In this document: piece after piece, positions 22,124 to 45,185 of the stretch | How positions within the stretch are numbered: the stretch's first letter is position 1 | Layout of the letters: every line of letters begins with the position of its first letter | Origin: a virus | Length of the DNA: 64,000 bases | Reading direction: 5' to 3' (one strand) | Virus record (IMG/VR): IMGVR_UViG_3300011116_001125 | Coordinates: 1-64,000 of that record | Made by a program: the position numbers and the translations under genes | Notes under the pieces: generated by a model | What the model was told of the DNA's origin: nothing | Database searches by the model: none | The model's input: only the letters and a program-made list of their open reading frames with translations

Positions 22124-22635
22124 TGAAAGATAATTTTGAACAATGCTTGGCCTTGGTGCTTAAACACGAAGGCGGTTATGTTAATAACCCAAAAGATCCA
22201 GGAGGCATGACTAACCTCGGCGTTACCAAAAAAGTTTGGGAAGAATGGGTTGGTCATACGGTAGACGAAGCAGCAATGCGAGCGTTGGGGCCAACAGATG
22301 TCGCGCCGCTCTACAAGAAAAACTACTGGGACCGTGTCCGTGGAGATGATCTACCGACAGGTGTTGACTATTCTGTGTTTGATCTTGCTGTTAATAGTGG
22401 TGTTAGCCGTGCCGTCAAGTTTTTACAGGCCGCTTGTGGTGTTGCTCAAGATGGCGCTATCGGACCAGCGACATTAGCCGCAGTTGCACAACAACACCCA
22501 CGCGAACTTGCTACCGCTGTGTGTGAAAAACGGTTAGCATTTCTTCAATCATTGCCAACGTGGAATACATTTGGCAGGGGGTGGAACAAGCGTGTAGCCG
22601 AAGTAGAAGAAGCTGCTTTTAAGATGGTCGGCTAA
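22123..22635 (+). CDS. Endolysin, glycosyl hydrolase family 108 with peptidoglycan-binding domain
   Basis: HEGGYVNNPKDPGGMTNLGVT catalytic motif; FDLAVNSG; FGRGWNKR. Confidence 0.9.
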   Translation: MKDNFEQCLALVLKHEGGYVNNPKDPGGMTNLGVTKKVWEEWVGHTVDEAAMRALGPTDVAPLYKKNYWDRVRGDDLPTGVDYSVFDLAVNSGVSRAVKFLQAACGVAQDGAIGPATLAAVAQQHPRELATAVCEKRLAFLQSLPTWNTFGRGWNKRVAEVEEAAFKMVG

Positions 22636-24071
22636 ACAATCCACTGTTTGTAATCTTCGTTCAGCACTTGCGTAGCAAGGTTAATCTTGTTGCGCAGTGC
22701 CTTTAATATTTTTTCTTCTACGGTATTTTCCGTAATGATATCTACGTAGGTAACGTTGTTTTTCTGCCCAATGCGGTGCGCACGGTCTTCGCTTTGCAAC
22801 CTTATTTCAAGGTCGTAGTTGTTACTGTAGTAGATCACAGTTTTGGCTAGTGTCAACGTTAATCCGTAGCCGCCCGTACGGGGTTGCCCAACAAAAAACC
22901 TCAGTGGATGGGCAACGTTTTGAAAGTTTTTCACTGTTTGTTGGCGCTGCTCTACATCAGTATCACCGTAGTACAGGGCCACTGAATCATTACCGTATTC
23001 TTCTTTGAGCATCTTTTCAATTTCCAACAGATCATTGGTAAATGTAGCCCATATGATTACCTTACCATCGACTTCTTCTAACGTAGCTTTTAGCTCGTTC
23101 AGTTTATTGGTTGGAAACCGTTTTGTGGTGCCATCATCCATACGCACAAAACCGCTACACACTTGTTGGAGCCGCAGTATTTGGGTGAGCACATTAGGGG
23201 CCGTTGCCAACTGACCTTCTAGCTCAGCCAAAGCTAGATTTTTCATTTGGGCATATATACGGGCCTGCTCATCGGTAAACTCTACCGTGCGGCGGGTATA
23301 AATTTTATCAGGTAAATCTAAACAATCTTCTTTACGCACACGGTAGCTAAACTCTTCAATCTTTTTGCTTAGCTCATCAAGGTTCTGATAGCCTACAATT
23401 TGATTAAAACTATGCGTGCCAAGCGAACGTTTAACCATACGGGCGTATCTGCTTTGGAAAGCCCAATAGCTGTTATAGCCCAAGGCCCATGGATCAAGAA
23501 ACTCGCACTGGCTGTACAGGTCCAACGGGCTTTGCGTAACGGGCGACCCTGTAGCAATACGCCGATAGATTGCCTTGGTGCCTAGTTTCACAAGGCTTTT
23601 GGTTCGTTTGGCAGTGCGGTTTTTGATTGTTGTGCTTTCATCTACTGCCATAAGCACTTTTTTCAATTTAAGAAACGTTTCTGCAAAAGTGCAACCTTTT
23701 TCGGTACTAAATGCTTCTACGTTCATAACTACCAATTTAAGTGATTCGTCGCGCTCGAACGCTCGCTCAAGATCTTTCTTTTTCTTTTGAGTTTGCTCAG
23801 GCGACCATGTAATGATTTGCGCATCAATATGCGTGGGCAAATGCTCAGGTAATTCTTTTTGCTCCCAATTTTTATACACGCCTTTGGGAGCTACAATCAA
23901 AGCGCCTTCAATACGACCTTCATCGTAGAGCATGGCTATTGTATCAATAATGATCTTACTTTTGCCTGTTCCCATTTCTAAAAACAGGGCGTATTCGGGG
24001 CGTTCCCAACTACGTTCAAGTGCCGTTAATTGATGCGCATACGGCTGATGCTTAAATTTGTAACGTAACAT
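22632..24071 (-). CDS. SNF2-family (SF2) helicase
   Basis: EMGTGKS Walker A, VDES motif II, TGSP, GYGLTL, QSEDRAHRIGQ motif VI. Confidence 0.9.
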   Translation of the reverse strand: MLRYKFKHQPYAHQLTALERSWERPEYALFLEMGTGKSKIIIDTIAMLYDEGRIEGALIVAPKGVYKNWEQKELPEHLPTHIDAQIITWSPEQTQKKKKDLERAFERDESLKLVVMNVEAFSTEKGCTFAETFLKLKKVLMAVDESTTIKNRTAKRTKSLVKLGTKAIYRRIATGSPVTQSPLDLYSQCEFLDPWALGYNSYWAFQSRYARMVKRSLGTHSFNQIVGYQNLDELSKKIEEFSYRVRKEDCLDLPDKIYTRRTVEFTDEQARIYAQMKNLALAELEGQLATAPNVLTQILRLQQVCSGFVRMDDGTTKRFPTNKLNELKATLEEVDGKVIIWATFTNDLLEIEKMLKEEYGNDSVALYYGDTDVEQRQQTVKNFQNVAHPLRFFVGQPRTGGYGLTLTLAKTVIYYSNNYDLEIRLQSEDRAHRIGQKNNVTYVDIITENTVEEKILKALRNKINLATQVLNEDYKQWIV

Positions 24072-24670: not shown

Positions 24671-25219
24671 ATGTTAGATTTTGAACAAACGGCTGACGAA
24701 CTTAGCAAGCTAGGCGATGATGCTATAGGCCGCATTGCTAAACTGGTTAAGATGCAACTTGCCTTGGAAGCAAGGCTAGCTCAACTAGAAGAAGAGCAAA
24801 AAGATGTTGCACGTCAGTTACGTGAAATAGCTGAAGAAGAGCTGCCTTCCGCAATGGAAGAGCATGGCGTAAGCCAATTAAAAATGGGTGACGGTAGTGA
24901 AATCACTGTAAGCACGTTTTACAGTGCCTCAATACCAAAGGATGAAACTGAGCGTGCGTTCGATTGGTTGCGCGATAATAGGTTTGGTGACCTCATTAAA
25001 AATGTTGTTTCCACAACCTTTGGGCGCAACGACGATGCTAAGGCTAAAGCACTTGTCAATACGCTGTCTGACAGTGGTTATAGCGTAAATCAGAAGCAGT
25101 GGGTTGAACCAATGACCCTCAAGGCTTTTGTTAAGGAACAAGTTGAAAAGGGGGCACCGCTTCCTATGGATTTGTTTGGTGTATATATTGGTAAAAAAGC
25201 CAAAGTAAGGAGAAAGTAA
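24671..25219 (+). CDS. Conserved replication-module protein (N-terminal coiled coil)
   Basis: 182 aa; AFDWLRDN...GDLIKN, VEPMTLKAFVKEQ. Confidence 0.65.
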   Translation: MLDFEQTADELSKLGDDAIGRIAKLVKMQLALEARLAQLEEEQKDVARQLREIAEEELPSAMEEHGVSQLKMGDGSEITVSTFYSASIPKDETERAFDWLRDNRFGDLIKNVVSTTFGRNDDAKAKALVNTLSDSGYSVNQKQWVEPMTLKAFVKEQVEKGAPLPMDLFGVYIGKKAKVRRK

Positions 25220-26031
25220 TGGCTAAAACATCAGTTGCGGTTGCGGAAACCAAAAACACTGCACTTGCTACGGCAAGCGATCTATCAGGCTTTGAAGAGT
25301 TTGCAGGCTTGGGTATGCAAGAAGTTACTGCCGCAGATATGGCAGTGCCGTTTTTGCGTATTCTGGCACAACTTAGCCCACAGGTGAATAAGCGTGATGG
25401 TGCTTATGTGCAGGGCGCAGAACCCGGAATGATCTACAATACTGTGGCTAACGAAGTTTACAGTGGTGAAGAAGGTATTTTGGTAGTTCCTTGTTACACT
25501 AATACTCGTTTTGTTGAATGGAAGCCCCGTGAAAAGGGCGGCGGTTATGTGGCGAGCTATATGGGTACCGACCCTATTGTAAACACAACTCGCAAGGATG
25601 ACCGTGGGCAGGATATCTTGCCTAATGGCAACTTGCTCAGCAAAACGGCGCAGTGGTTCGTATTGTTGTTGCACCCTGAAAACGGTGCGCAACGTTGCCT
25701 CATTACCATGAGCAGTACACAGCTTAAGAAAAGCCGTAGTTGGGTGACCACTACACGTAGCATCATGGGCAAAGGTGCAAACGGCCCGTTTGTAATGCCT
25801 ATCATGTCACAGGTTTACCGCCTTAAAACTACTGAAGAGCGCAACGATAAAGGTAGTTGGTTTGGGTGGGATATCGCACGTGAACGCCAGTTGGTGTTGG
25901 AAAATCGTGACGATAGTGACCTCTACCGTATGGGTGTTGAGTTTAGCAAAAGCATTTCAGCGGGTGAAGTCAAGGTTAAAGATGAACACCCTGATATGTC
26001 CTCCGAAGATAATGGTTCTTCACCGTTTTAA
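25219..26031 (+). CDS. Putative single-stranded DNA-binding protein
   Basis: Acidic C-terminus ending in PF; PFLRILAQLSPQV; lies before the primase. Confidence 0.6.
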   Translation: MAKTSVAVAETKNTALATASDLSGFEEFAGLGMQEVTAADMAVPFLRILAQLSPQVNKRDGAYVQGAEPGMIYNTVANEVYSGEEGILVVPCYTNTRFVEWKPREKGGGYVASYMGTDPIVNTTRKDDRGQDILPNGNLLSKTAQWFVLLLHPENGAQRCLITMSSTQLKKSRSWVTTTRSIMGKGANGPFVMPIMSQVYRLKTTEERNDKGSWFGWDIARERQLVLENRDDSDLYRMGVEFSKSISAGEVKVKDEHPDMSSEDNGSSPF

Positions 26032-26084
26032 TTTAGGTGATTGGGCGGGGGCATATAGCCTCCGCCAACCATACGGGGGTGGTA

Positions 26085-27608
26085 ATGCAAGAACATGCAA
26101 AGCAGTTTTTTGCTCTGTTCAAAGGTAATGACAGGGCACACGGAACATTTAGCGTTAACAAAAGTCGTGATGATGGCAAGAAAACGGGTATTGCTAAAAT
26201 CCTACGGGAAGAAACTACGCTTGACCATTGGGTCAATCACCTTGAGGGTGAGGTTGGCTTGGGCGTTATTCCTATTATGGACGACAACCATTGCCATTGG
26301 GGTGCTATTGATATTGATAGCTACGATTTAGATCACAAGGCACTGTTAAAGAAACTTGGCTCACTGAACATTCCTGCGGTGGTGTGCCGTAGTAAGAGCG
26401 GCGGTGCCCATGTGTTTTTCTTCTTTGAAGAACCTATCGATGCAGAAGATGTGCAGGGCAAGTTGAATGAAGTTGCCGCTATCACAGGATTTGCAGGTAG
26501 TGAAATTTTTCCTAAGCAAAGCAAGTTACTTGTTGAGCGTGGCGATACAGGCAACTTCCTTAACATGCCGTATTTCGGTGGGGATAACACCACCCGCTAC
26601 GCTTTTGATGAAGGTGCCCAAAGCCTGAGTGTAGAAGCGTTCCTTACGCACGCCTTCACACGTAGGCTGAGCAAGGAAAAGTTTTTAGGGCTTAAGTTCA
26701 ACAATAAGAAAACAGGCACCGAACTATTACCTAATGGTCCACCCTGTTTGCAACATCTATGCGCACAGGGCTTTGGTGAAGGTAGTAGGAACAATGCGCT
26801 ATTTAATCTTGGTGTGTATGCCCGTATGTCAGATAGTGACCATTGGGAGCAGTTAGTTGCCAAATATAATCTAGATTACTTGAAACCACCGCTAGGCCAT
26901 AATGAAGTAGGGGCCATTATCAAACAGTTGCAGAAAAAAGATTACTTCTACAAGTGCGAAGACCAACCTATATCCAGCTTCTGCAATAAAGCTGTGTGCA
27001 TGACGCGCAAGTTTGGCGTTGGTCCTGGACAGTTGAACAATGACCTTAGCAGTTTAACTAAAATAGACGGTGACCCACCTATATGGATATTGAATGTTGA
27101 CGGTAGGCGCGTTGAGTTGAGTACTGAAAGTTTGGTAACGCAGAGTGCTTTCCAAAAAGAGTGCGTTGCACAAATCAATAAGTTCCCTATCACAGTTAAT
27201 CAACGTGCATGGCAAACACGTATGCAATCTTTGTTAGACAACTTAACGGTTGTAGAAGTGCCGCCAGATGCTACCATTAAAGGTGAGTTTGAGGATTTGC
27301 TTGCGAGCTTTTGTTGCGACCGTGCGCGGGGTGATACACGTGATGAGATACTACAAGGCATTGCTGTATGGGTTGATGAGCGTGTGTATTTCCAAATCAA
27401 AGACGTACGGAAACATCTGCAAGTAAACAACTTCACGCATTACACTAGCAACAAGATAACGCTACGCTTGACTGATCTAAAAGCGGAAAAGATGTTTTGG
27501 CGTGTGAAGGGTAAGGGTATTCACGTGTGGAGTTTGCCACAAACATTCTTTGCCACGCAGATGGAAACATTGGATTTGCCACCGCTTGTGCCTAAAGATG
27601 TAATCTAA
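26085..27608 (+). CDS. AEP-family primase with PriCT-like domain
   Basis: WGAIDID motif I, RSKSGGAH motif II, GNFLNMPY; PPCL...GEGSRNNALF PriCT signature. Confidence 0.8.
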   Translation: MQEHAKQFFALFKGNDRAHGTFSVNKSRDDGKKTGIAKILREETTLDHWVNHLEGEVGLGVIPIMDDNHCHWGAIDIDSYDLDHKALLKKLGSLNIPAVVCRSKSGGAHVFFFFEEPIDAEDVQGKLNEVAAITGFAGSEIFPKQSKLLVERGDTGNFLNMPYFGGDNTTRYAFDEGAQSLSVEAFLTHAFTRRLSKEKFLGLKFNNKKTGTELLPNGPPCLQHLCAQGFGEGSRNNALFNLGVYARMSDSDHWEQLVAKYNLDYLKPPLGHNEVGAIIKQLQKKDYFYKCEDQPISSFCNKAVCMTRKFGVGPGQLNNDLSSLTKIDGDPPIWILNVDGRRVELSTESLVTQSAFQKECVAQINKFPITVNQRAWQTRMQSLLDNLTVVEVPPDATIKGEFEDLLASFCCDRARGDTRDEILQGIAVWVDERVYFQIKDVRKHLQVNNFTHYTSNKITLRLTDLKAEKMFWRVKGKGIHVWSLPQTFFATQMETLDLPPLVPKDVI

Positions 27609-30525: not shown

Positions 30526-30553
30526 TTGCAATGGTGGAGTCAGTGGTTAAACT
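30526..30553 (+). promoter_or_regulatory. Promoter for the DNA-modification operon, overlapping a hairpin
   Basis: TTGCAA-N16-TAAACT inside the GTGGAGTCAGT/ACTGGCTCCAC stem. Confidence 0.5.
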
Positions 30554-30591
30554 GGCTCCACTACCCACCTTGCCATAGAAAGGCGCAAGAT

Positions 30592-31164
30592 ATGTATTAC
30601 GTGATTGCTGAAGGCCCCCCTGCTTCACAGGGCAAGCCTTATCACATTTTAAAGTTCAAAACGCTACGTGACATGAAAGAGTGCCCTTTGATCGACAAAG
30701 GCACCATTGTGTATAGCGAAGTTACCCAATTAGACGAGTTTTGTACAAAGGCCGAGTTGGAAGCCATTTGGCACACTCTTAACCTGAGTTCAAAGGCACC
30801 GCAGAACAAGCGCATTACCGCAGGGCTTCTGCATGAGTATGTTGTGGAAAACGCAACGGTTTGGAAACAAGGAGACACCAAAATGACTGAAGTTAAAGTT
30901 TCGGCACCTGCCGCTAAAACTGCTCCGAAAGAGAAAAAGGAAAGTGCCCGCACACGTATCCCCAAGGAAGCAAAAATCGTAGTGCTTAAGCAGTTTGAAG
31001 GTCGCGCCGGAACCACGCGTGCCGAAGCCTTAAAAATTGCTCTTGCCGCACCAACGGTTGAAAAGGCCCTTGCCGATATGCGTGCCGCAGGATTTACAGC
31101 GGCAGTTGCCTCATCGACCATTAAGTTCGCCATTGCCGAAAAACTTATAACGGTAAAGATCTAA
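30592..31164 (+). CDS. Hypothetical protein with basic Ala/Lys-rich C-terminal domain
   Basis: ATG 30592 after AGAAAGG; second in-frame ATG at 30883 with an AGGAG SD. Confidence 0.65.
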   Translation: MYYVIAEGPPASQGKPYHILKFKTLRDMKECPLIDKGTIVYSEVTQLDEFCTKAELEAIWHTLNLSSKAPQNKRITAGLLHEYVVENATVWKQGDTKMTEVKVSAPAAKTAPKEKKESARTRIPKEAKIVVLKQFEGRAGTTRAEALKIALAAPTVEKALADMRAAGFTAAVASSTIKFAIAEKLITVKI

Positions 31165-31165
31165 C

Positions 31166-32020
31166 ATGAACGGCGAAGGGCAGTTCTTTTATTGGATAAA
31201 TGAGCGCCATTCTATCTATTTGTCTAAGGCGGCGGGTAATCCAAAACCTTGGACAAGTGATAGTATTTTCCAACAGTACAAGTTTACGAACCCTTTTAGG
31301 GAGCTAGACAAAACAACTGTATGGATGCGCGAACATTTGACCAATCCCAACAAAAATGCCCCCATAGCCGAAACCCTGTTCAACTGTTGCGTGTTCCGCA
31401 TGTTTGGCACGATGGAAATGGGCGAGGCTTTGGGTTGGATAAAGCAGTGGGATCCTGAATATGTGAAAAGTCTTGCCCGTGGTCGGTTGAGCATGGGGCT
31501 TAAAGTATTCACAGGGGCATACATTATCACTAACCAAGGGTTGAAAAACCCAAAGGAAGAGGTAGTATGCGATATGTTTCTGACCCCCGTATGGAAAGCC
31601 CGTGATCAGTTAGCCGAGTGCATTGAGCAAACAAATAGTTTGGAAGCACTGCACAAGGAACTTGGCAAGTTTGCAGGATGGGGCGGCGGGGGCTTTATGG
31701 CCTACGAAGTAGTAACCGATCTTAACCATACTAGCGCCATGCCAGAGCCAGTTGATAGGTTTACGTGGGCCAATGCAGGTCCAGGAGCAAAGCGGGGTCT
31801 TAACCGTTTGCATGGTCGCCCCTTGGATAAAGCCAATGGCGTAGACTGGAATAGCGAAATGCAACAGCTATTGGAGCTCGCCCCAAAATACTGTGACCCC
31901 GAAGTATTAGCTCAAGTTGTAGATATGCGCACGATAGAGCATAGCCTGTGCGAATGGGATAAGTACCAACGGGTACTACTCGGCCAAGGTAAACCACGAA
32001 GCCTGTACAAAGGAATTTAG
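31166..32020 (+). CDS. aGPT-Pplase1 / 5-hmdU DNA kinase helical-domain family protein (HhH-glycosylase-like)
   Basis: FYWINERHSIY...PWTSDSIFQQYKFTNPFRELDKTT, GFMAYEVVTD, GPGAKRGL, IEHSLCEWDKY signatures. Confidence 0.8.
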   Translation: MNGEGQFFYWINERHSIYLSKAAGNPKPWTSDSIFQQYKFTNPFRELDKTTVWMREHLTNPNKNAPIAETLFNCCVFRMFGTMEMGEALGWIKQWDPEYVKSLARGRLSMGLKVFTGAYIITNQGLKNPKEEVVCDMFLTPVWKARDQLAECIEQTNSLEALHKELGKFAGWGGGGFMAYEVVTDLNHTSAMPEPVDRFTWANAGPGAKRGLNRLHGRPLDKANGVDWNSEMQQLLELAPKYCDPEVLAQVVDMRTIEHSLCEWDKYQRVLLGQGKPRSLYKGI

Positions 32021-32021
32021 T

Positions 32022-33020
32022 ATGTCATACGTACAAGACCCACCCTACTGCATCCAAGTAGAATTAACTGAAGGATGCAACTTGGGTTGTAGCTTCTGCG
32101 GGTTGCAACACATTCGTGATAACGGTGCCAATGGCCCCGAAGATAAACACGGTAAAGCCTCCTTTATGAAGTTTTTAACCGTGGAAAATGCGGAGGTTAT
32201 TGCAAGCCGTATAGCCGAAGCTAAATGGACCCCCCGTATTGAGTTTGCCATGCACGGCGAGCCAACCATGAACCCTAATTACATTGAAATTGTAGGGGTG
32301 TTCCGTAAGAATTTACCGAAAGCCAGTTTGCAGTTGACCAGTAATGGCGGCGGGCTACTCAAAGGCCAAGGGTTCAGTAGCAATATCAACGCGCTTATGG
32401 AAGCGGGCCTGAACATACTTAGTTTAGATAACTACGATGGCATACGTATCGTTGATAAAATTTTGCAAGGATACAATGGGCCACATCGCGTATGGAAATA
32501 CCCGCAAGAAATTATGGGCAACCCTCATCGCCGCCGCAAGCCGCATGAACACGATATTGTAGTTATTCAAGATATTGAAGCCGCTACCAAAGGCAATCAC
32601 AGTATACTCAGCAACCACACAGGCGGGAGCTTTCCGCTTAATGATAAAATGGCAGGGAAGCGTTGTGCAAAGCCCTTCCGTGAACTTAGCGTGCGTTGGG
32701 ATGGCAACGTAGCGATGTGCTGTAACGACTGGCCCGGACGCTACAAAATCGGCAACTTGTTAGAAACAGCAATAAGTGAGCTTTGGCTAGGTGAAGCCTT
32801 CCAAGCCGCTAGACAAGCCTTGTATCATGGACAACGGACATTCACACCTTGTAAAGGTTGTGACCATGTAAGTTACCGTCCAGGATTGTTGCCTGATGCC
32901 AAGGGTAAAGAAACATTACCAAAGCCTGATGCGCAAACGTGGGCAGTAATAGAAAAATACACAAGTGGTGAGCCTTACACTCCAAAAGTAAAAAGGCCGT
33001 GGGATGGAGTAATTAAGTGA
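32022..33020 (+). CDS. Radical SAM enzyme with SPASM/Twitch domain
   Basis: CNLGCSFC (CX3CX2C), HGEPT, TSNG; C-terminal CAKPF...DGNVAMCCND...CKGC. Confidence 0.9.
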   Translation: MSYVQDPPYCIQVELTEGCNLGCSFCGLQHIRDNGANGPEDKHGKASFMKFLTVENAEVIASRIAEAKWTPRIEFAMHGEPTMNPNYIEIVGVFRKNLPKASLQLTSNGGGLLKGQGFSSNINALMEAGLNILSLDNYDGIRIVDKILQGYNGPHRVWKYPQEIMGNPHRRRKPHEHDIVVIQDIEAATKGNHSILSNHTGGSFPLNDKMAGKRCAKPFRELSVRWDGNVAMCCNDWPGRYKIGNLLETAISELWLGEAFQAARQALYHGQRTFTPCKGCDHVSYRPGLLPDAKGKETLPKPDAQTWAVIEKYTSGEPYTPKVKRPWDGVIK

Positions 33021-33979
33021 ACGTCGATCTATTTTATCTTAGCCCTAACCCGTATGGTGGATGGGTTACCTTCACCGCGCATTTGGTTGAGGCTTTGAAA
33101 ACGGTTGGTATCAAACCAAACTTGTATCGTATTAGGCCGCGCAGTGAAAAGAAACCACGGCCCTTTGGTTACGATCTGCATTACACAAACATCAGTTTGC
33201 AAGATGCTTTGCGTAGCCCGAACAAGAAGTTGATTGTAGCCGCCGCTAAAAACTTTGCGGAGGAAACTTCGGCGCTGTACTCAGCGGGTGCCGCGCTTGT
33301 AGTGCATGATCCTACCGAAATCAAAAACCTACCACCGTTAGATGGCAAGATCATTGTTATTCGGCAGATTGGTTTAACGTATCTGCCAAAAGCCGTGTTC
33401 ATACGGCACCCGTATCAACGTAGGCCCGAGTATGAAATATTCAACCGTACAACACGGGCTATCAGCACTTCGCGTATTGACTTTGACAAGCATACCGCGC
33501 TGATACTTGATGCAAATAGGTTAGTGCCCGATGAAGTTAAGTGCAGGATATATGGTTTTGAAAACCGCATCTACACACGATTTAAGATAGTACCTCATTA
33601 CCCTGAATGGGAACAAAGCAAAGCGGCTTATCCCCGCAGTAAAGAAGCCGCGTTTAAGTTGCTTTCTTACGCGCAACTTGCCGTGGATATGAGCCTTATT
33701 AAAGGTGATGGCGGTGGTACTCAATACACAACACTGGAAGCATGGGATGCAGGTGCAGTTCCGGTTATCCAACGTGCGTGGCTAATGCCCAAAGATGATA
33801 TGGTTGAAAACCAAAACTGTTTTGCAGTAGGTAACGCCGATGAGTTAGCCGCATTGTTATCAGACGTAGGGAATACTTCATACTTGGATAACTACCGCGA
33901 GTATGGATATAAGCAGTTGGCGCTCCACCATCCCAAGGTTATTGGTGAACGCTATAAAGCCGTTTTAGAAGCTATTTGA
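33017..33979 (+). CDS. GT-B fold glycosyltransferase-like protein
   Basis: N-terminal YGG, SRIDFDKH, and GGGTQYTTLEAWDAGAVPV resembling the GT4 donor-binding motif. Confidence 0.65.
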   Translation: MNVDLFYLSPNPYGGWVTFTAHLVEALKTVGIKPNLYRIRPRSEKKPRPFGYDLHYTNISLQDALRSPNKKLIVAAAKNFAEETSALYSAGAALVVHDPTEIKNLPPLDGKIIVIRQIGLTYLPKAVFIRHPYQRRPEYEIFNRTTRAISTSRIDFDKHTALILDANRLVPDEVKCRIYGFENRIYTRFKIVPHYPEWEQSKAAYPRSKEAAFKLLSYAQLAVDMSLIKGDGGGTQYTTLEAWDAGAVPVIQRAWLMPKDDMVENQNCFAVGNADELAALLSDVGNTSYLDNYREYGYKQLALHHPKVIGERYKAVLEAI

Positions 33980-33996
33980 TAATAGTAGGGCATACC

Positions 33997-34986
33997 ATGT
34001 ACACAATAAAGGTTAGAAACGTTTCTGAGGCCCTCTACGTTGGTCTAGGTGCTATCAAAAGTACGGGGGCTAAAATACAAAGCCGCGCAGGTGAAACCCT
34101 TGAAATGCCTGCTCCTGTATGCACAACGTACAGTCACCCTATGGAGCGTGTGTTGTTCTACCCGCAACGTGACGCTAACCCGTTTTTCCACTGCTTAGAA
34201 GCACTGTGGATGTTGGCAGGGCGCAACGATGTGGAGTTCCTTAAGCGTTACAACAAACGCATGGAAACATATAGCGATGGCAATGATATATTGCACGGAG
34301 CTTATGGGCACAGATGGCGTAATTGGTTTGGCATTGACCAGTTGGATATCGCTGTAAAACGGTTGAAAAAATACCCCAACGATAGACGCACCGTCGTGCA
34401 AATGTGGGATAGTGAAAATGATTTGTATGAAGGTAACCAGTTAAAAGATATCCCTTGTAACACGCAAATATACTTTAAGGTGCGTGAAGGGCGTTTGAAC
34501 ATGATGGTTACATGCCGTAGTAATGATATGATATGGGGCGCGTATGGCGCAAACGCAGTTCACTTTTCAATGTTACAAGAATACGTTGCCGCTAGAGTAG
34601 GTGTGCCCGTAGGGACGTATCACCAAGTGAGCGATAGCTTCCATGCTTATACGGACGTGCTTACTAAGTTGGATAACTTGGTTGCCGATTATGACCCCTA
34701 CTATGAGTTCGATTACTTGGTGCAACCTTTGGTAACGGATGCTGCCAAGTTTGATGAAGAACTTCGTAGGTTTTTTGATTCATCGCCACTTACACGTGTC
34801 TACCGCAATATGTTTCTTGGCAATGTAGCCGACCGTATGCGTGCGGCCCATGCACTATGGCGCAGTGGCGATATGGACGAAGCCCTGAGTATGGCGGGTG
34901 CTATCACTGCGCCGGATTGGCGTAAGGCTTGTGTAGAATGGTTGGAACGCAGGAGAAAGAGCGATGAGCAAGACATTAGAAAATAA
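33997..34986 (+). CDS. Thymidylate-synthase-family enzyme, probably dUMP hydroxymethylase
   Basis: DIPCN catalytic Cys, RSND, GANAVHF (Asn at the dUMP-specificity position), SFHAY; divergent from canonical ThyA. Confidence 0.75.
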   Translation: MYTIKVRNVSEALYVGLGAIKSTGAKIQSRAGETLEMPAPVCTTYSHPMERVLFYPQRDANPFFHCLEALWMLAGRNDVEFLKRYNKRMETYSDGNDILHGAYGHRWRNWFGIDQLDIAVKRLKKYPNDRRTVVQMWDSENDLYEGNQLKDIPCNTQIYFKVREGRLNMMVTCRSNDMIWGAYGANAVHFSMLQEYVAARVGVPVGTYHQVSDSFHAYTDVLTKLDNLVADYDPYYEFDYLVQPLVTDAAKFDEELRRFFDSSPLTRVYRNMFLGNVADRMRAAHALWRSGDMDEALSMAGAITAPDWRKACVEWLERRRKSDEQDIRK

Positions 34987-35278
34987 TTTGGCTGAGTTAG
35001 CAAAAGCCGATGTAGAAGGTTTAATGCGTGCGCAAATCAGCTATGGCAATAGTTGGAAGCGTAGAGGTGGCGTTGGTGCGTTTATGATGTTAGCCCGTAA
35101 GTGGGACCGCATAAGCAATCAATGCAAGAAGGTTGGTTGGGATGTATTCAAAGCCATAGAAAATGACCCAAGTGATACAGGTATTTTAGATGACATACGT
35201 GACCTACGCAGATACCTTTTGTTAGTACACGAGGAAATGCAACGTAATGGATATAAAGATCCCGGATCACTTGATTGA
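34964..35278 (+). CDS. Nucleotide-modification-associated (Nmad1/DUF1599, MazG-like helical) protein
   Basis: YGNSWKRRG...RKWDRI...DDIRDLRRY. Confidence 0.6.
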   Translation: MSKTLENNLAELAKADVEGLMRAQISYGNSWKRRGGVGAFMMLARKWDRISNQCKKVGWDVFKAIENDPSDTGILDDIRDLRRYLLLVHEEMQRNGYKDPGSLD

Positions 35279-35462
35279 GGCCGTGTGTGAGTGTGGCAAA
35301 GAAAAGCGCACGCTCACCATGCGTAAACTAAAGAACAAATGGCCCTTTTGTCAGTGCCGTCAAGCAATGAAAGTTTATGATGAGCAACCTATGGATGAAC
35401 AAGGAGTGGGTGATGCCAGAGGCATTGCCGAGCTTCTCCGACGCGGCAGAAATATCCATTGA
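35247..35462 (+). CDS. Small Zn-finger-like protein
   Basis: CECG...CQCR; overlaps both neighbours. Confidence 0.4.
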   Translation: MDIKIPDHLIEAVCECGKEKRTLTMRKLKNKWPFCQCRQAMKVYDEQPMDEQGVGDARGIAELLRRGRNIH

Positions 35463-37314
35463 CCTTGAAACATACGACCCCCGCCTAACTACACATGGCA
35501 GTGGATGGGCACGTAAGGAAGGTGAAATTATTGGCGTTGCCGTAGCTGTTGATGGCGAGGCTATGTATGTTCCTGTGCGCCATAAAAACGGGCAGAATAT
35601 TGATTGGCGACGTGTGCATTATTGGTTGAAAACAATATGCGGAAACCCTAACCGTGATTATGTATTTCACAACGCCATGTACGACGTTGGTTGGTTATGG
35701 TCCGAGGGTATTGAAATCAAAGGCCGCATTGTTGATACAATGGTTGCCGCGCCGTTAATCGATGAGAACCGTTATAGTTACTCGCTCAATGCGCTTAGTA
35801 AAGACTACTTAGGCGAAACTAAAAATGAATACCTGCTAAAAGAAGCCGCCGCTCAATTTGGCGTGAACCCAAAAGCAGGGATGCACTATCTACCCGCACA
35901 GTTCGTTGGGCCTTATGCTGAGCAAGACGCTGCCCTTACACTGAAACTATGGCAACACTTCAAAAACATTATCATTCGCGATGAGTTGCAGGATATTTTT
36001 GACCTTGAGTTGCGCGTTCTACGTGTGTGTATTGAAATGCGTAAGAAAGGTGTGCGCGTAGATGTTGAGCGTGCCGAGCAAATAAAGCGCGATTTAGAAA
36101 AGCGTGAGCAAGCTATATTAGGTGGTTTGAAAAAGGAATATGGCGTAGCGGTCGATATCTGGGCGGCGGCGAGTATTGCCAAAGCGTTTGATGCCGTAGG
36201 CTTGGAATATGAGCGCACGGAAAAAACCAATGCGCCGAGCTTTACCAAAAACTTTCTTGCTAACCATCAACACGCACTGCCCCGAGCAGTTGTGCAAGCG
36301 CGTGAGCTCAACAAAGCACGCACTACGTTTATTGATACGATATTAGGCCATCAGCATAATGGGCGTATCCATGCTGAAATGCACCAGTTGCGCAGTGATG
36401 ATGGCGGTACGGTTACAGGGCGATTCAGCTACAGCAACCCGAACTTGCAACAAATTCCCGCACGTAACCAAGAAATCGGGCCACTGATACGTGGCTTGTT
36501 TTTACCCGAAGAAGGTGAGTTGTGGGGCGCGTTTGACTACAGTAGCCAAGAACCACGCATCGTTGTTCATTATGCTTCGTTGCTTGATTTCACAGGTGCC
36601 GCAGACTTTGTTGAACAGTACGCAAAAGATGCACGCACGGACTTCCACCAACTTGCGGCGGATATTGTTGGTGTGCCCCGCAAGAAAGCCAAAGACATCA
36701 ATTTGGGTTTGTTCTATGGCATGGGGCAGAAAAAGCTAGCCGACCAGTTAGGCTTGGAGCTTGAAGATGCCAAGGAACTGTTTACCTTGTATCACAACAA
36801 AGTGCCTTTCGTGCGGCAGTTAAGTGATTACGCAATGAACCGTGCGAATAGCAGAGGGATTATTCGTACTTTATTAGGTAGGCGTTGCCGCTTTGATATG
36901 TGGGAACCTATGAAGTACGGTTTGCACAAGCCCTTGCGTCACGCAGAAGCGTACGCGGAACATGGCCCACAGATTAAACGTGCGTTCACTTACAAAGCAC
37001 TTAATCGATTAATCCAAGGCAGTGCTGCAGACCAAACGAAGTTGGCTATGGTAACAGCGTACGAAGCTGGATACTTGCCACTGATACAAGTGCATGATGA
37101 GTTGGATTTTAGTGTGGCAAGTGAACTTGATGCAAAGCGCATCGCCGAAATAATGGAAAGCTGTGTGGGCCTTGCTGTACCGAGCGTAGTGGATGCGGAG
37201 TTCGGTCTAACATGGGGCGAAGCAAAGCAAACATTTACCGATAAACCTTGGACCCGTGGTTTGAAGCATAACCACTCAACAATGGAAACAAACAATGATC
37301 ACACAGCTGAATAG
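35377..37314 (+). CDS. polA: DNA polymerase family A with 3'-5' exonuclease
   Basis: DLET, FHNAMYD, YAEQDA exonuclease motifs; TGRFS, PNLQQIP, DYSSQEPR, KDINLGLFYG, QVHDE. Confidence 0.95.
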   Translation: MMSNLWMNKEWVMPEALPSFSDAAEISIDLETYDPRLTTHGSGWARKEGEIIGVAVAVDGEAMYVPVRHKNGQNIDWRRVHYWLKTICGNPNRDYVFHNAMYDVGWLWSEGIEIKGRIVDTMVAAPLIDENRYSYSLNALSKDYLGETKNEYLLKEAAAQFGVNPKAGMHYLPAQFVGPYAEQDAALTLKLWQHFKNIIIRDELQDIFDLELRVLRVCIEMRKKGVRVDVERAEQIKRDLEKREQAILGGLKKEYGVAVDIWAAASIAKAFDAVGLEYERTEKTNAPSFTKNFLANHQHALPRAVVQARELNKARTTFIDTILGHQHNGRIHAEMHQLRSDDGGTVTGRFSYSNPNLQQIPARNQEIGPLIRGLFLPEEGELWGAFDYSSQEPRIVVHYASLLDFTGAADFVEQYAKDARTDFHQLAADIVGVPRKKAKDINLGLFYGMGQKKLADQLGLELEDAKELFTLYHNKVPFVRQLSDYAMNRANSRGIIRTLLGRRCRFDMWEPMKYGLHKPLRHAEAYAEHGPQIKRAFTYKALNRLIQGSAADQTKLAMVTAYEAGYLPLIQVHDELDFSVASELDAKRIAEIMESCVGLAVPSVVDAEFGLTWGEAKQTFTDKPWTRGLKHNHSTMETNNDHTAE

Positions 37315-37819
37315 AATTTGGCATTTACGCAGGGCAGGATACATTAAGCGTTATCATACAGTGCCTACAGTTGGGGATAGTCAAACCGTGAGTGCGCATT
37401 CTTGGGGCGTTGCAACACTAATCAATGAAATATGGCCCGATGCCAGTAAGCAAGTATTACTCGCTAGTTTGTATCACGATGTTGCCGAAGTGTTGATAGG
37501 TGATACCCCTGCAACAGTGAAGTGGAAGTACGCCGATTTTGCCGCCGCAATCGAAAAAGTAGAAAAAGAAGCGGAAGAAGAATTAGAACTGGAATTTGCG
37601 CTATCCCTGAGAGAGAAGCGCCAGTTGAAAATTGCCGATTTGTTAGAGCTGATGCTTTACGCAGGCGAACAAATAAAGATAGGAAACATGCACTTTAAAG
37701 AAGTACTGAATAACGGAAAAGAATACTTGCAAGTGAAATATGGAAATACCCCTGAGTTTAACGAAGCCTTCCCCATGTTCAACTATGCGCTAACAAGGCT
37801 TAGTCATTCTACCATGTAG
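37295..37819 (+). CDS. HD-domain deoxynucleotide phosphohydrolase (YfbR-like)
   Basis: KRYH...VSAHSW...LYHDVAEVLIGD...KIADLLE. Confidence 0.85.
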   Translation: MITQLNRIWHLRRAGYIKRYHTVPTVGDSQTVSAHSWGVATLINEIWPDASKQVLLASLYHDVAEVLIGDTPATVKWKYADFAAAIEKVEKEAEEELELEFALSLREKRQLKIADLLELMLYAGEQIKIGNMHFKEVLNNGKEYLQVKYGNTPEFNEAFPMFNYALTRLSHSTM

Positions 37820-37856: not shown

Positions 37857-38318
37857 GTGAACATATTCGCCTTACACACTGATCCTGTAATTGCGGCGCA
37901 ATGGCATTGCGATAAGCACGTTGTCAAAATGCCGTTAGAAACTGCTCAGATGCTTTGCACGGTGCATCACCATTACGGCTTTGATGCGCCCTATAAGCCT
38001 GCTCATGCTAACCATCCTTGTACTGTGTGGGCGGGCCAAACGATTGAAAATTACAAGTGGCTCTGGCGCTTAGGCATTGCCCTATGCGAGGAGTATACCC
38101 ACCGATACAACAAAACTCATGCCTGCGAGCAAGTGTTAGCGATAGTGCGTTGCGCTCCACCTACACTCACGGCACGGGGTTACACAAAATTCGCGCAGGC
38201 CATGCCTGACGAATACAAGCACCACGATACACAAATAGCTTATCAACAATATTATCGCGGTGCAAAATACCAGTTGGCTGTGTACACGAAACGTGAACCA
38301 CCGCCGTTCATGCAATAG
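37857..38318 (+). CDS. Pyrimidine dimer DNA glycosylase-like family protein
   Basis: MNIF...HCDKHVVKMPLETAQMLCT, NHPCTVW, EYTHRY, FAQAMPD. Confidence 0.7.
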   Translation: MNIFALHTDPVIAAQWHCDKHVVKMPLETAQMLCTVHHHYGFDAPYKPAHANHPCTVWAGQTIENYKWLWRLGIALCEEYTHRYNKTHACEQVLAIVRCAPPTLTARGYTKFAQAMPDEYKHHDTQIAYQQYYRGAKYQLAVYTKREPPPFMQ

Positions 38319-44582: not shown

Positions 44583-45185
44583 GTGAGTAATGGTAACGTC
44601 TTTATTGACATTTACAAAAACAATCGTTGGGAAGACGGCGGCTCGGGTATCGGGTCGGCGGTGACGTATAGCCGTAAGTACATTGATTACGTCAAACCCC
44701 TGATAAAAGGGAAAAAGGTACTCGACCTCGGGTGCGGCGATTTTAGAATTGGTGCAGAGTTGCATGCAGAGGCCGCTGAATACGTAGCCGTAGACGTAGT
44801 GAGTGGGTTGTTCACTGTTCCTGACGAAGTAAAATTCATTGTGGCAGATTTTTCTGCGCAGGGGGTTATCGGGCAAGTGTTCATGGCCCATGGACCTTTT
44901 GATGTTGTTTTGTTGAAAGACGTGCTGATGCACTGGTCCGACGAAGAGATCAAACCCTTCGCACAGGAGCTCGCCACTCTGCCTTGGAAAACGCTACTTG
45001 TGGCGAACAAGTACAAATACGTCCGCAAGCCGGAGTACAACGGTCGCCCACGCAACCCCAGAGCAAACAAGTATAGCATGAGTCCATTACCCTGCGACCA
45101 CGAAAGCCTTGCCGCACTCCAGCTGAAACCCGTGCTCTACTACCCATCCGTATCGTGCGTACAACTCGCGCGGCAGGATAAATAG
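44583..45185 (+). CDS. Class I SAM-dependent methyltransferase (small-molecule/glycan type)
   Basis: GSGIGS, VLDLGCGDF motif I, YVAVDV, FDVVLLKDVLMHW. Confidence 0.8.
   Translation: MSNGNVFIDIYKNNRWEDGGSGIGSAVTYSRKYIDYVKPLIKGKKVLDLGCGDFRIGAELHAEAAEYVAVDVVSGLFTVPDEVKFIVADFSAQGVIGQVFMAHGPFDVVLLKDVLMHWSDEEIKPFAQELATLPWKTLLVANKYKYVRKPEYNGRPRNPRANKYSMSPLPCDHESLAALQLKPVLYYPSVSCVQLARQDK

Follow-up and report, generated by a model that had tools for sequence, protein, structure and literature searches.

Candidate cluster for kinase-independent thymidine hypermodification with a GT-B glycosyltransferase and a radical SAM enzyme in an uncultured aquatic phage

Gene organization of the candidate modification cluster

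By hypermodifying their DNA, phages overcome restriction enzymes, and DNA-modifying enzymes can be drawn from such systems. To our knowledge, all thymidine hypermodification routes solved to date begin with the phosphorylation of 5-hydroxymethyldeoxyuridine (5-hmdU). Here, we analyzed a stretch of 64,000 nucleotides (termed the window in the following), comprising positions 1 to 64,000 of the IMG/VR virus record IMGVR_UViG_3300011116_001125, which represents an uncultured aquatic phage (75,636 bp, 100% complete according to CheckV). Between positions 30526 and 37819 the window encodes a PF18723 protein, a radical S-adenosylmethionine (SAM) enzyme, a predicted GT-B glycosyltransferase (GT), a thymidylate synthase homologue, a family A DNA polymerase (PolA) and an HD-domain nucleotidase (Table 1). 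We consider it probable that these genes constitute a kinase-independent thymidine hypermodification cluster, composed of a conserved core and a sugar cassette.

Table 1. Genes of the candidate modification cluster and its downstream flank.
Feature	Position	Strand	Evidence and remarks
Basic protein without family	30526-31164	+	212 aa from TTG; isoelectric point (pI) 9.5; no Pfam, PHROG or NCBIfam match
PF18723 (aGPT-Pplase1/HMUDK_hel) protein	31166-32020	+	Pfam 1.7e-49
Radical SAM enzyme with SPASM/twitch domain	32022-33020	+	Pfam, NCBIfam
GT4-like GT-B glycosyltransferase (predicted)	33017-33979	+	AlphaFold model; no sequence family match
dUMP hydroxymethylase (most likely), thymidylate synthase superfamily	33976-34986	+	phrog_5131 1e-111; tree
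Conserved small protein, 104 aa	34964-35278	+	Synteny in relatives
Family A DNA polymerase with 3'-5' exonuclease	35377-37314	+	Pfam DNA_pol_A 5e-57, exonuclease 8e-14; phrog_17
HD-domain YfbR-like 5'-deoxynucleotidase	37295-37819	+	PF12917 5e-16
T4 endonuclease V-like (Pyr_excise)/phrog_624 protein, 153 aa	37857-38318	+	PF03013 27.2 bits (cut-off 23); phrog_624 5e-61

The open reading frames (ORFs) of this region lie on the + strand at the positions given in an initial annotation, which had been made from the sequence alone, and the PolA and YfbR-like HD proteins that it placed downstream were recovered with Pfam. That annotation had described a coupled operon behind one promoter. The tight packing holds, with junctions of -23 to +8 nt between 30526 and 35278 and again a tight junction between PolA and HD genes. 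The single promoter could not be confirmed, since the packing begins already at ~26037 and a consensus scan gave no excess of promoter-like or terminator-like sites over shuffled sequence. The + strand gene run starts there with an AEP-type primase, a UvrD helicase, a small ORF and a DUF932 gene, and most of its junctions overlap or span a few bases.

Among cultured phages, a megablast search with the 7.3-kb region revealed no close DNA relative. Near-identical DNA is present in viral, aquatic, freshwater, estuary and sediment metagenomes from 10 studies, and assembled contigs from four of these studies span the entire stretch and show strain-level variation; as assemblies without raw signal they are silent on base modification. 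The full record of 75,636 bp is ~12 kb longer than near-complete relatives (58-63 kb).

The thymidylate synthase homologue is most likely a dUMP hydroxymethylase

The protein encoded at 33976-34986 had been described as a divergent thymidylate synthase with an asparagine at the dUMP-specificity position. Alignments agree with this description: Asn193 occupies the dUMP-specificity position, and Cys161 is part of a PCN motif, which reads PCH or PCV in the synthases. In phmmer searches the protein matches PaMx11 gp51 (1e-84) and PhiJL001 gp24 (5e-83), and tblastn ranks M6/YuA-like phages (47% identity) before SPO1 (3e-39), ViI-like phages (~1e-26), PhiW-14 (2e-19) and T4-type td (~1e-8). The best match among PDB sequences is the CMP hydroxymethylase MilA (8e-23), ahead of all canonical synthases.

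A maximum-likelihood tree was calculated, in which the protein falls within the hydroxymethylase clade of SPO1, PhiW-14, ViI-like phages, PaMx11 and Yuavirus and does not group with canonical ThyA; this clade is split from T4-like td and SPbeta ThyA with a support of 100/99. A helical C-terminal extension of ~100 residues is common to the hydroxymethylases, including those of SPO1 and PaMx11. Translation probably starts at the ATG at 33997. Judged by the tree and the motifs, the protein is most likely a dUMP hydroxymethylase making 5-hydroxymethyl-dUMP (5-hmdUMP).

Enzymes of the kinase route are absent

A route employing a 5-hmdU DNA kinase and an amino-acid:DNA transferase has been described for the phages M6, PaMx11, ViI, PhiW-14 and SP10 (Lee et al., 2018, 2021; PMC5889632, PMC8989533). 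At E<=1, neither the P-loop 5-hmdU DNA kinase (PF18748) nor the amino-acid:DNA transferase (PF18724) is matched anywhere in the full record, and no match was obtained in five related genomes that are 98-100% complete. The PF18748 search does recover the PaMx11 kinase, which served as positive control. When every ORF of the record was compared by phmmer with the kinase, transferase, pyridoxal phosphate (PLP) enzyme, radical SAM isomerase and Nmad5 proteins of PaMx11/Yuavirus, only the PF18723 and HD proteins matched. On the coding (+) strand, Walker A motifs are found only in the UvrD helicase and in a 120-aa ORF without Pfam match. The initial annotation had noted neither a P-loop kinase nor a PLP enzyme in the cluster, and with Pfam models and known proteins as queries both are absent from the full record.

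In PaMx11 the P-loop kinase occupies the slot held here by the first ORF of the interval, 30526-31164, which the initial annotation had left unmentioned. The product of this ORF is more likely a protein of 190 aa starting with the ATG at 30592. In the ESM Atlas it has matches only in unnamed phage clusters (<0.9), and weak homologues (29-37% identity) are located at the same position in relatives. The possibility that it is a cryptic kinase was rejected, because it shows neither a Walker A motif nor any similarity.

The glycosyltransferase belongs to an uncatalogued family

The protein encoded at 33017-33979 has no sequence match in Pfam, PHROG or NCBIfam. Its structure was predicted with AlphaFold from an alignment of 31 family members, with a predicted local distance difference test (pLDDT) of 89.7 and a predicted template modelling (pTM) score of 0.88. 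The model contains two Rossmann-like domains with a cleft between them and confirms the GT-B fold that had been assigned to this gene. Foldseek found at least 500 PDB matches at E<=1e-3; among the matches listed, the top ones are all GT-B enzymes, with template modelling scores of up to 0.73. They include glycogen synthase as well as SenB, BshA, HepE, PimA, MshA and the T4 alpha-glucosyltransferase AGT (1xv5/1y6g), the latter six with E-values of ~1e-10 to 1e-9, and one of the matched T4 AGT entries is bound to DNA with a 5-hydroxymethyluracil (5-hmU) base. Among the named matches in the viral structure library BFVD are glycosyltransferases of SP-15 and proteins carrying the annotation "DNA alpha-GT". 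By its modelled fold the protein is thus GT4-like, while its sequence does not place it in GT4: the window GT has no Glycos_transf_1-type Pfam match, and PF13524 is detected in only few of its homologues.

About 500 homologues were found in metagenomes; marine and Tara samples contributed many of them, and many are encoded on contigs 40-80 kb long. In an exhaustive profile search, 745 of 1.84 billion cluster representatives matched at E<=1e-3, and 436 matched at E<=1e-30. The family is bounded and does not merely form a fringe of the huge GT4 superfamily. The residues GGW14-16, H97-D98, E101, R153-x4-K158, D231-GGG and E241 are invariant; we take them to resemble the nucleotide-sugar-binding elements of GT4 enzymes. 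The isoelectric points of the GT (pI 9.0) and of the radical SAM enzyme (pI 8.6) are both basic. We predict that 33017-33979 encodes a 5-hydroxymethyluracil DNA glycosyltransferase, and its 745 cluster representatives would then constitute a DNA glycosyltransferase family that is unnamed in any database.

Conservation of the cluster and fusions of the glycosyltransferase

To find related loci, IMG/VR was scanned with the GT profile, resulting in 52 loci (L numbers in the following) onto which the window proteins were mapped. A PF18723 gene adjoins or is near the GT gene in 38 of the 52 loci and a hydroxymethylase gene in 35, the GT identities ranging from 95% down to ~35%; all three genes are found together in ~35 loci. 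The gene order is PF18723-GT-hydroxymethylase in most loci, GT-PF18723-hydroxymethylase in L028-L031, and PF18723-x-GT-rSAM-hydroxymethylase in L033-L039 (rSAM: radical SAM enzyme). Some clusters carry additional genes: a TET-associated glycosyltransferase (TAGT) in L022, L023, L026 and L027, an FkbM-type methyltransferase in L026, and a nucleotidyltransferase fused to a mannose-6-phosphate-isomerase-type cupin in L033. These extra genes fit sugar chemistry.

TET/JBP enzymes generate 5-hydroxymethylpyrimidines in DNA, and HMG boxes bind DNA. Two proteins of ~800 aa, encoded on giant-virus-type contigs (L043:5534-7921 and L051:8007-10418), consist of a GT homologue in their N-terminal third (33-35% identity) followed by a Tet_JBP oxygenase domain and three HMG boxes; such a protein would be a base-J-like machine in one polypeptide. 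In the phage contig L032, which has a terminase gene, the start of the GT ORF overlaps the end of the preceding Tet_JBP ORF. All TET/JBP-fused and TET/JBP-adjacent members retain the invariant residues of the GT family. No stronger argument than these fusions is available for a glycosylation of hydroxymethylpyrimidines in DNA by this family, and they suggest that base-J-like marks occur outside the kinetoplastids. In L049 and L052, major capsid genes of the nucleocytoplasmic large DNA virus (NCLDV) type were observed beside stand-alone GT homologues.

A second type of fusion connects the two enzymes of the cassette. P0125 (704 aa) and its cluster mates, which occur on more than 20 contigs including Tara contigs, combine the GT-B enzyme (35% identity) with an rSAM/twitch protein in the C-terminal half (58% identity). 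This fusion indicates that the GT and the rSAM enzyme of the window work in the same pathway.

The radical SAM enzyme is an accessory component

Full SPASM domains have seven to eight cysteines and bind two clusters, and twitch domains bind one. The protein encoded at 32022-33020 matches Radical_SAM (PF04055) with 35.5 bits (cut-off 29.5) and SPASM (PF13186) with 47.4 bits (cut-off 21.5), and an NCBIfam twitch subfamily with 7e-11. Its CX3CX2C motif is formed by C19, C23 and C26, and further cysteines are present in the C-terminal part (C215, C233/C234, C277 and C280), so that the radical SAM enzyme noted initially is confirmed by motif and by Pfam matches above the cut-offs, and with it the presence of C-terminal cysteines. 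With only five cysteines in BtrN-like spacing, the auxiliary domain is more readily explained as a twitch domain, although the number of clusters cannot be read from the sequence. The sole significant match among PDB sequences is the twitch domain of BtrN (4m7t; 3.5e-9). The only relatives in cultured phages are Campylobacter phage proteins annotated as BtrN (22-24% identity), and no relationship to the M6/Yuavirus radical SAM isomerase was found.

A gene for the rSAM enzyme is present in 15 of the 52 loci. It is absent from the syntenic site of L002 and L021, whose GTs are 87% identical to the window GT, and searches detected none in four related genomes with a completeness of 91% or more and none in the record of L021 (64% complete). 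The rSAM enzyme is accessory and not part of the core. The initial annotation had proposed that a GT and an rSAM enzyme take the place of the kinase and the PLP enzyme; the GT does occupy the cassette, but the rSAM enzyme as a replacement core enzyme is contradicted by its absence from relatives. Since a GT with 87% identity should use the same donor and yet occurs without the rSAM enzyme, the latter more probably acts after sugar transfer than in making a special donor. By analogy with BtrN, we predict that it tailors the DNA-linked sugar.

BtrN is a radical SAM 2-deoxy-scyllo-inosamine dehydrogenase; its substrate, an aminocyclitol, resembles a sugar and is oxidized at a secondary alcohol. 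Both proteins have a CX3CX2C core and an auxiliary-cluster domain with equal cysteine spacing, which in BtrN is a single-cluster twitch domain and here probably is one too, whereas their core domains are not detectably similar and the window enzyme would work on a DNA-bound sugar. From this analogy, oxidation of a sugar hydroxyl is the favoured reaction, although this is the least secure step of the scheme. The protein would be only the second radical SAM enzyme known to act in DNA base modification and, if it does act on the sugar, the first on a DNA-linked sugar.

The PF18723 protein is predicted to belong to a conserved replication core

The HhH-like aGPT-Pplase1/HMUDK-helical protein that had been recognized at 31166-32020 is supported by its Pfam match (169.1 bits against a cut-off of 25, covering positions 6-276 of 281 of the PF18723 model) and by a fold resembling helix-hairpin-helix (HhH) glycosylases. 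In VIA-align the structural model (pLDDT 91.9) has its best match in 8z2m_A, the 5-phosphomethyldeoxyuridine (5-PmdU) glycinyltransferase gp46/PUGT of PaMx11 (Z 11.2, root mean square deviation 4.2, 222 residues), followed by QNG1 and HhH DNA glycosylases. Foldseek against the PDB gave only matches with E>0.3, and a comparison with PDB sequences gave none. An LCE(W/F)DK motif is invariant, with Cys262 and Glu263 conserved throughout alignments of 21 and 23 sequences, and in a weak profile alignment this cysteine coincides with the catalytic cysteine of gp46. In M6 and ViI, mutation of the catalytic cysteine abolishes transferase activity (PMC8989533). In the published reconstitutions PF18723 proteins were dispensable, and SP10 gp186 is still an active kinase when its PF18723 part is removed.

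The PF18723 tree places the kinase-linked gp50 of PaMx11 as sister of the kinase-less, TAGT-linked gp19 of PhiJL001 (100/99), and this pair is sister to a GT-B-linked clade. One orthologous family thus serves both the kinase and the GT type of cassette. We also inspected 24 long PF18723 proteins (P0135-P0158). About half of them are fused to a family A DNA polymerase and many others to AAA_25 helicase or primase domains; one is fused to a Dam methylase and a single one to a 5-hmdU DNA kinase, and 20 retain the LCE..K motif. In L022 (5042-8004) a PolA ORF runs straight into the PF18723 ORF, and in L024 (2572-4853) there is an overlap between a PolA fragment and a PF18723 ORF that is extended at its N terminus.

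The Pfam label "kinase helical domain" seems too narrow for PF18723. These comparisons suggest that the protein belongs, together with hydroxymethylase, HD protein and PolA, to a conserved 5-hmdU replication core around which cassettes are swapped. An assignment of PF18723 as a GT-specific partner is not upheld, because it is part of the conserved core and elsewhere is mostly fused to PolA or to a primase-helicase. A role as dedicated GT adaptor was likewise rated unlikely on the basis of the tree and fusion data; a complex prediction for PF18723 and GT scored 0.00 against a mark of 0.32 and carries no weight either way. The fusion pattern provides a testable lead on the role of the family, which has been a question since 2013.

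Proposed pathway and alternative explanations

From the folds, family memberships, absences, synteny and fusions described above, we infer the following scheme, including its substrates, the order of its steps, the identity of the sugar and the radical reaction. In the core, which would be common to M6, PaMx11 and PhiJL001-type phages, the thymidylate synthase-like hydroxymethylase would convert dUMP to 5-hmdUMP and kinases would raise it to 5-hmdUTP; these kinases are probably host enzymes, since no phage nucleotide kinase was found. The phage PolA would place 5-hmdUTP in the DNA, and the HD nucleotidase would deplete the competing canonical nucleotide, dTMP or another canonical deoxynucleoside monophosphate. 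The PF18723 protein would be a paralogue of the amino-acid:DNA transferases that works through a cysteine, and would meet its substrate, 5-hmdU DNA, at the replication fork or close to it. Once the DNA is replicated, the GT4-like GT-B enzyme would take a hexose from a nucleotide sugar donor and attach it to DNA, at the hydroxymethyl oxygen of 5-hmdU; the product would be a base-J-like O-glycosyl-5-hmdU, probably with an alpha linkage if the enzyme is retaining like GT4. The BtrN-like twitch rSAM enzyme would then abstract a hydrogen from the attached sugar, most likely oxidizing a secondary alcohol to yield a keto sugar; dehydration or epimerization would be alternatives.

The sequence of 5-hmdU, sugar and radical remodelling had been suggested in outline by the initial annotation. 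Its outline gains from the hydroxymethylase clade, the fusion and adjacency of the GT with TET/JBP, the GT-rSAM fusion and the sugar genes of variant clusters; the details did not stand as far as the roles of the rSAM and PF18723 proteins are concerned. Tentatively, the end product could be a base that has not been described before, an O-glycosyl-5-hydroxymethyluracil whose sugar is altered by the rSAM enzyme (keto, deoxy or cyclised) and which is made without a phosphorylated intermediate, with PF18723 being no helper domain of the kinase but a replisome-coupled Cys-dependent enzyme acting on 5-hmdU DNA in all thymidine-hypermodifying phages; this complete version is less likely than not. If PF18723 is indeed such an enzyme, a function would be assigned for the first time to a family that hundreds of phages carry.

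Several observations weigh against this scheme. The GT has no sequence match to any characterized glycosyltransferase, neither in tblastn searches of cultured phages nor when the family profile is compared with PDB sequences. Its D231-x9-E241 motif, accompanied by the R153-x4-K158 pair, is a variant of EX7E, so that donor type and stereochemistry are guesses. The BtrN match covers residues 192-286 of the rSAM enzyme only, and an auxiliary-cluster domain does not fix the reaction. Neither a phage nucleotide kinase nor a dCMP deaminase was identified among the genes scanned, and a full replacement of thymine is therefore not implied. Finally, PF18723 keeps the catalytic cysteine of the transferases and might consume a glycosylated intermediate, in which case the glycoside would not be the final base.

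This last point leads to a different course of events, in which the sugar is a leaving group: the GT-B enzyme would replace the kinase, Cys262 of PF18723 would attack C6 and displace the sugar by a nucleophile or hydride, the rSAM enzyme would rearrange the product, and the final base would be non-glycosylated. The M6 radical SAM isomerase (gp53) does work on a thymine adduct (PMC8989533), and the order in PaMx11 is kinase-PF18723-hydroxymethylase, with the GT at the cassette position here; the retained LCE motif and the 5-PmdU glycinyltransferase as best structural match of PF18723 point the same way. We nevertheless regard this course as unlikely, since the GT family also occurs with TET/JBP and without PF18723, the GT is directly fused to an rSAM protein that is unrelated to M6 gp53, and the second glycosyltransferases, the sugar-type methyltransferase and the sugar-nucleotide genes of variant clusters fit glycan end products. 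In addition, PF18723 orthologues occur in kinase-type and GT-type phages alike and mostly as replisome fusions, and a glycoside is, on general chemical grounds, a poor leaving group.

It is also conceivable that the GT-B and rSAM enzymes do not act on DNA at all and are mere neighbours in a replication module. They would then work before replication, on a nucleotide or nucleotide sugar that is still free, or else on the host envelope, a protein or a small molecule. In phage SP-15, some of the construction of the modified base takes place on nucleotides (PMC5977210). Lipids, small molecules and proteins are the usual targets of GT4 enzymes, the structural matches of the GT belong to this kind, and the substrate of BtrN is a free aminocyclitol. 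Such a role is improbable, however, for a family that is fused to TET/JBP and HMG-box DNA-binding domains and whose slot between PF18723 and hydroxymethylase is kept across phages with only 35-60% identity; the family moreover co-occurs with TAGT, which Pfam defines by its association with genes for TET/JBP (the dioxygenases of 5-methylpyrimidines in DNA), and, as a weak argument, the GT and the rSAM enzyme are basic. Ordinary thymine DNA, with a divergent thymidylate synthase and passenger genes around it, is very improbable: Pfam and NCBIfam do name the protein only a thymidylate synthase, below the NCBIfam equivalog cut-offs, but tree, ranking and motifs put it with the hydroxymethylases and it is co-inherited with PF18723, a family so far known from 5-hmdU-modifying phages.

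Comparison with known modification systems

The proposed glycosylation of 5-hmdU DNA can be compared with several described systems. PaMx11 and Yuavirus encode dUMP hydroxymethylase, PF18723, HD and PolA in the same order as the window. The window HD protein is homologous to the HD protein beside the Yuavirus hydroxymethylase (1e-18), and in PaMx11 an HD gene adjoins the hydroxymethylase gene as well. Like the M6-type pathways, the predicted one would decorate 5-hmdU after replication, and M6 likewise has an rSAM enzyme, which works on a DNA base adduct. It differs in that no P-loop kinase, PF18724 transferase, PLP or flavin adenine dinucleotide (FAD) enzyme is present and a GT-B enzyme is found instead, and in that the window rSAM enzyme is from a separate, twitch-type family. 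Sequence comparisons thus support the view that the system shares its core with the thymidine pathways and that its new part is the cassette of an uncatalogued GT-B enzyme and a twitch rSAM enzyme.

Phage glycosyltransferases acting on 5-hydroxymethylcytosine (5hmC) were reported by Pyle et al. (2024), and the GT-B genes mined in that study often neighbour thymidylate synthase homologues (bioRxiv 10.1101/2023.12.21.572611). The T4 enzymes AGT and BGT and these 5hmC GTs are GT-B enzymes that glycosylate a 5-hydroxymethylpyrimidine in duplex DNA, and T4 AGT is among the structural matches of the window GT. The predicted acceptor here is 5-hmU and not 5-hmC, there is no sequence similarity, and the fold is nearest to GT4. 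The window GT is, furthermore, linked to PF18723 and to an rSAM enzyme, neither of which is mentioned by Pyle et al. In kinetoplastids, JBP1/2 and the glycosyltransferase JGT produce base J. The predicted product would likewise be an O-glycosyl-5-hydroxymethyluracil in DNA, and members of the GT family are fused to TET/JBP; the differences are that 5-hmU would be made before replication by a hydroxymethylase and not by oxidation of thymine, and that an additional rSAM step would follow. JGT is GT-A-like, in contrast to the GT-B enzyme found here (Pyle et al., 2024; bioRxiv 10.1101/2023.12.21.572611).

A cultured counterpart is PhiJL001 (AY576273.1 12271-16120; Keylargovirus, Mesyanzhinovviridae), a phage of Alphaproteobacteria with a kinase-less module of PF18723, glycosyltransferase and dUMP hydroxymethylase. 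Its PF18723 protein is the top phage match of 31166-32020 (37.5% identity). The PhiJL001 glycosyltransferase is, however, a TAGT (PF20691) unrelated to GT-B, and the phage encodes Nmad5 and no radical SAM enzyme. No report on its base composition was found in the literature searched, and it offers a ready experimental model of kinase-less thymidine modification.

According to a 2026 paper on T-dioxygenases, the genes most often found next to phage 5mYOX genes are those for glycosyltransferases. Neither this paper nor Pyle et al. describes glycosylated 5-hmU in phages, the present GT family, its link to PF18723 or an rSAM partner, and a full-text literature search for these combinations returned only papers on the kinase pathway. 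Together with its many relatives, the cluster suggests that thymidine hypermodification has a second branch, which is based on sugars.

Neighbouring genes

The small protein encoded at 34964-35278 had been called Nmad1-like, a label that the searches did not confirm: it has no significant family match (no Pfam match at E<=0.01), PF07659 is absent from the record at E<=10, and PF18753 (Nmad2) was not found. The sole lead is a weak one, an ESM Atlas cluster in which 25% of the members have DUF1599. The protein is kept at the same position in relatives (51-69% identity). It shows a sub-threshold match to the Pyr_excise model, the family of the protein encoded at 37857-38318, and both genes are kept beside the modification genes in relatives.

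SNF2-family helicases recur beside modification clusters in distant relatives (L028:5600-7033; L029:3243-4694), and the window has one at 22632-24071 on the - strand. The primase at 26037-27608 (+), which opens the replication module, has its best Pfam match in the archaeo-eukaryotic primase (AEP) domain of the TOTE conflict system (PF22548). An ORF of 200 aa at 44583-45185 (+), immediately upstream of the gene for the small terminase subunit, resembles class I SAM-dependent methyltransferases (weak Pfam matches); the target of its product could be DNA or a sugar. Two genes at 24671-26031 (+) match Pam3 gp33-like (PF23984) and gp34-like (PF23977) families, which hints at a kinship with the Pam3 phage group.

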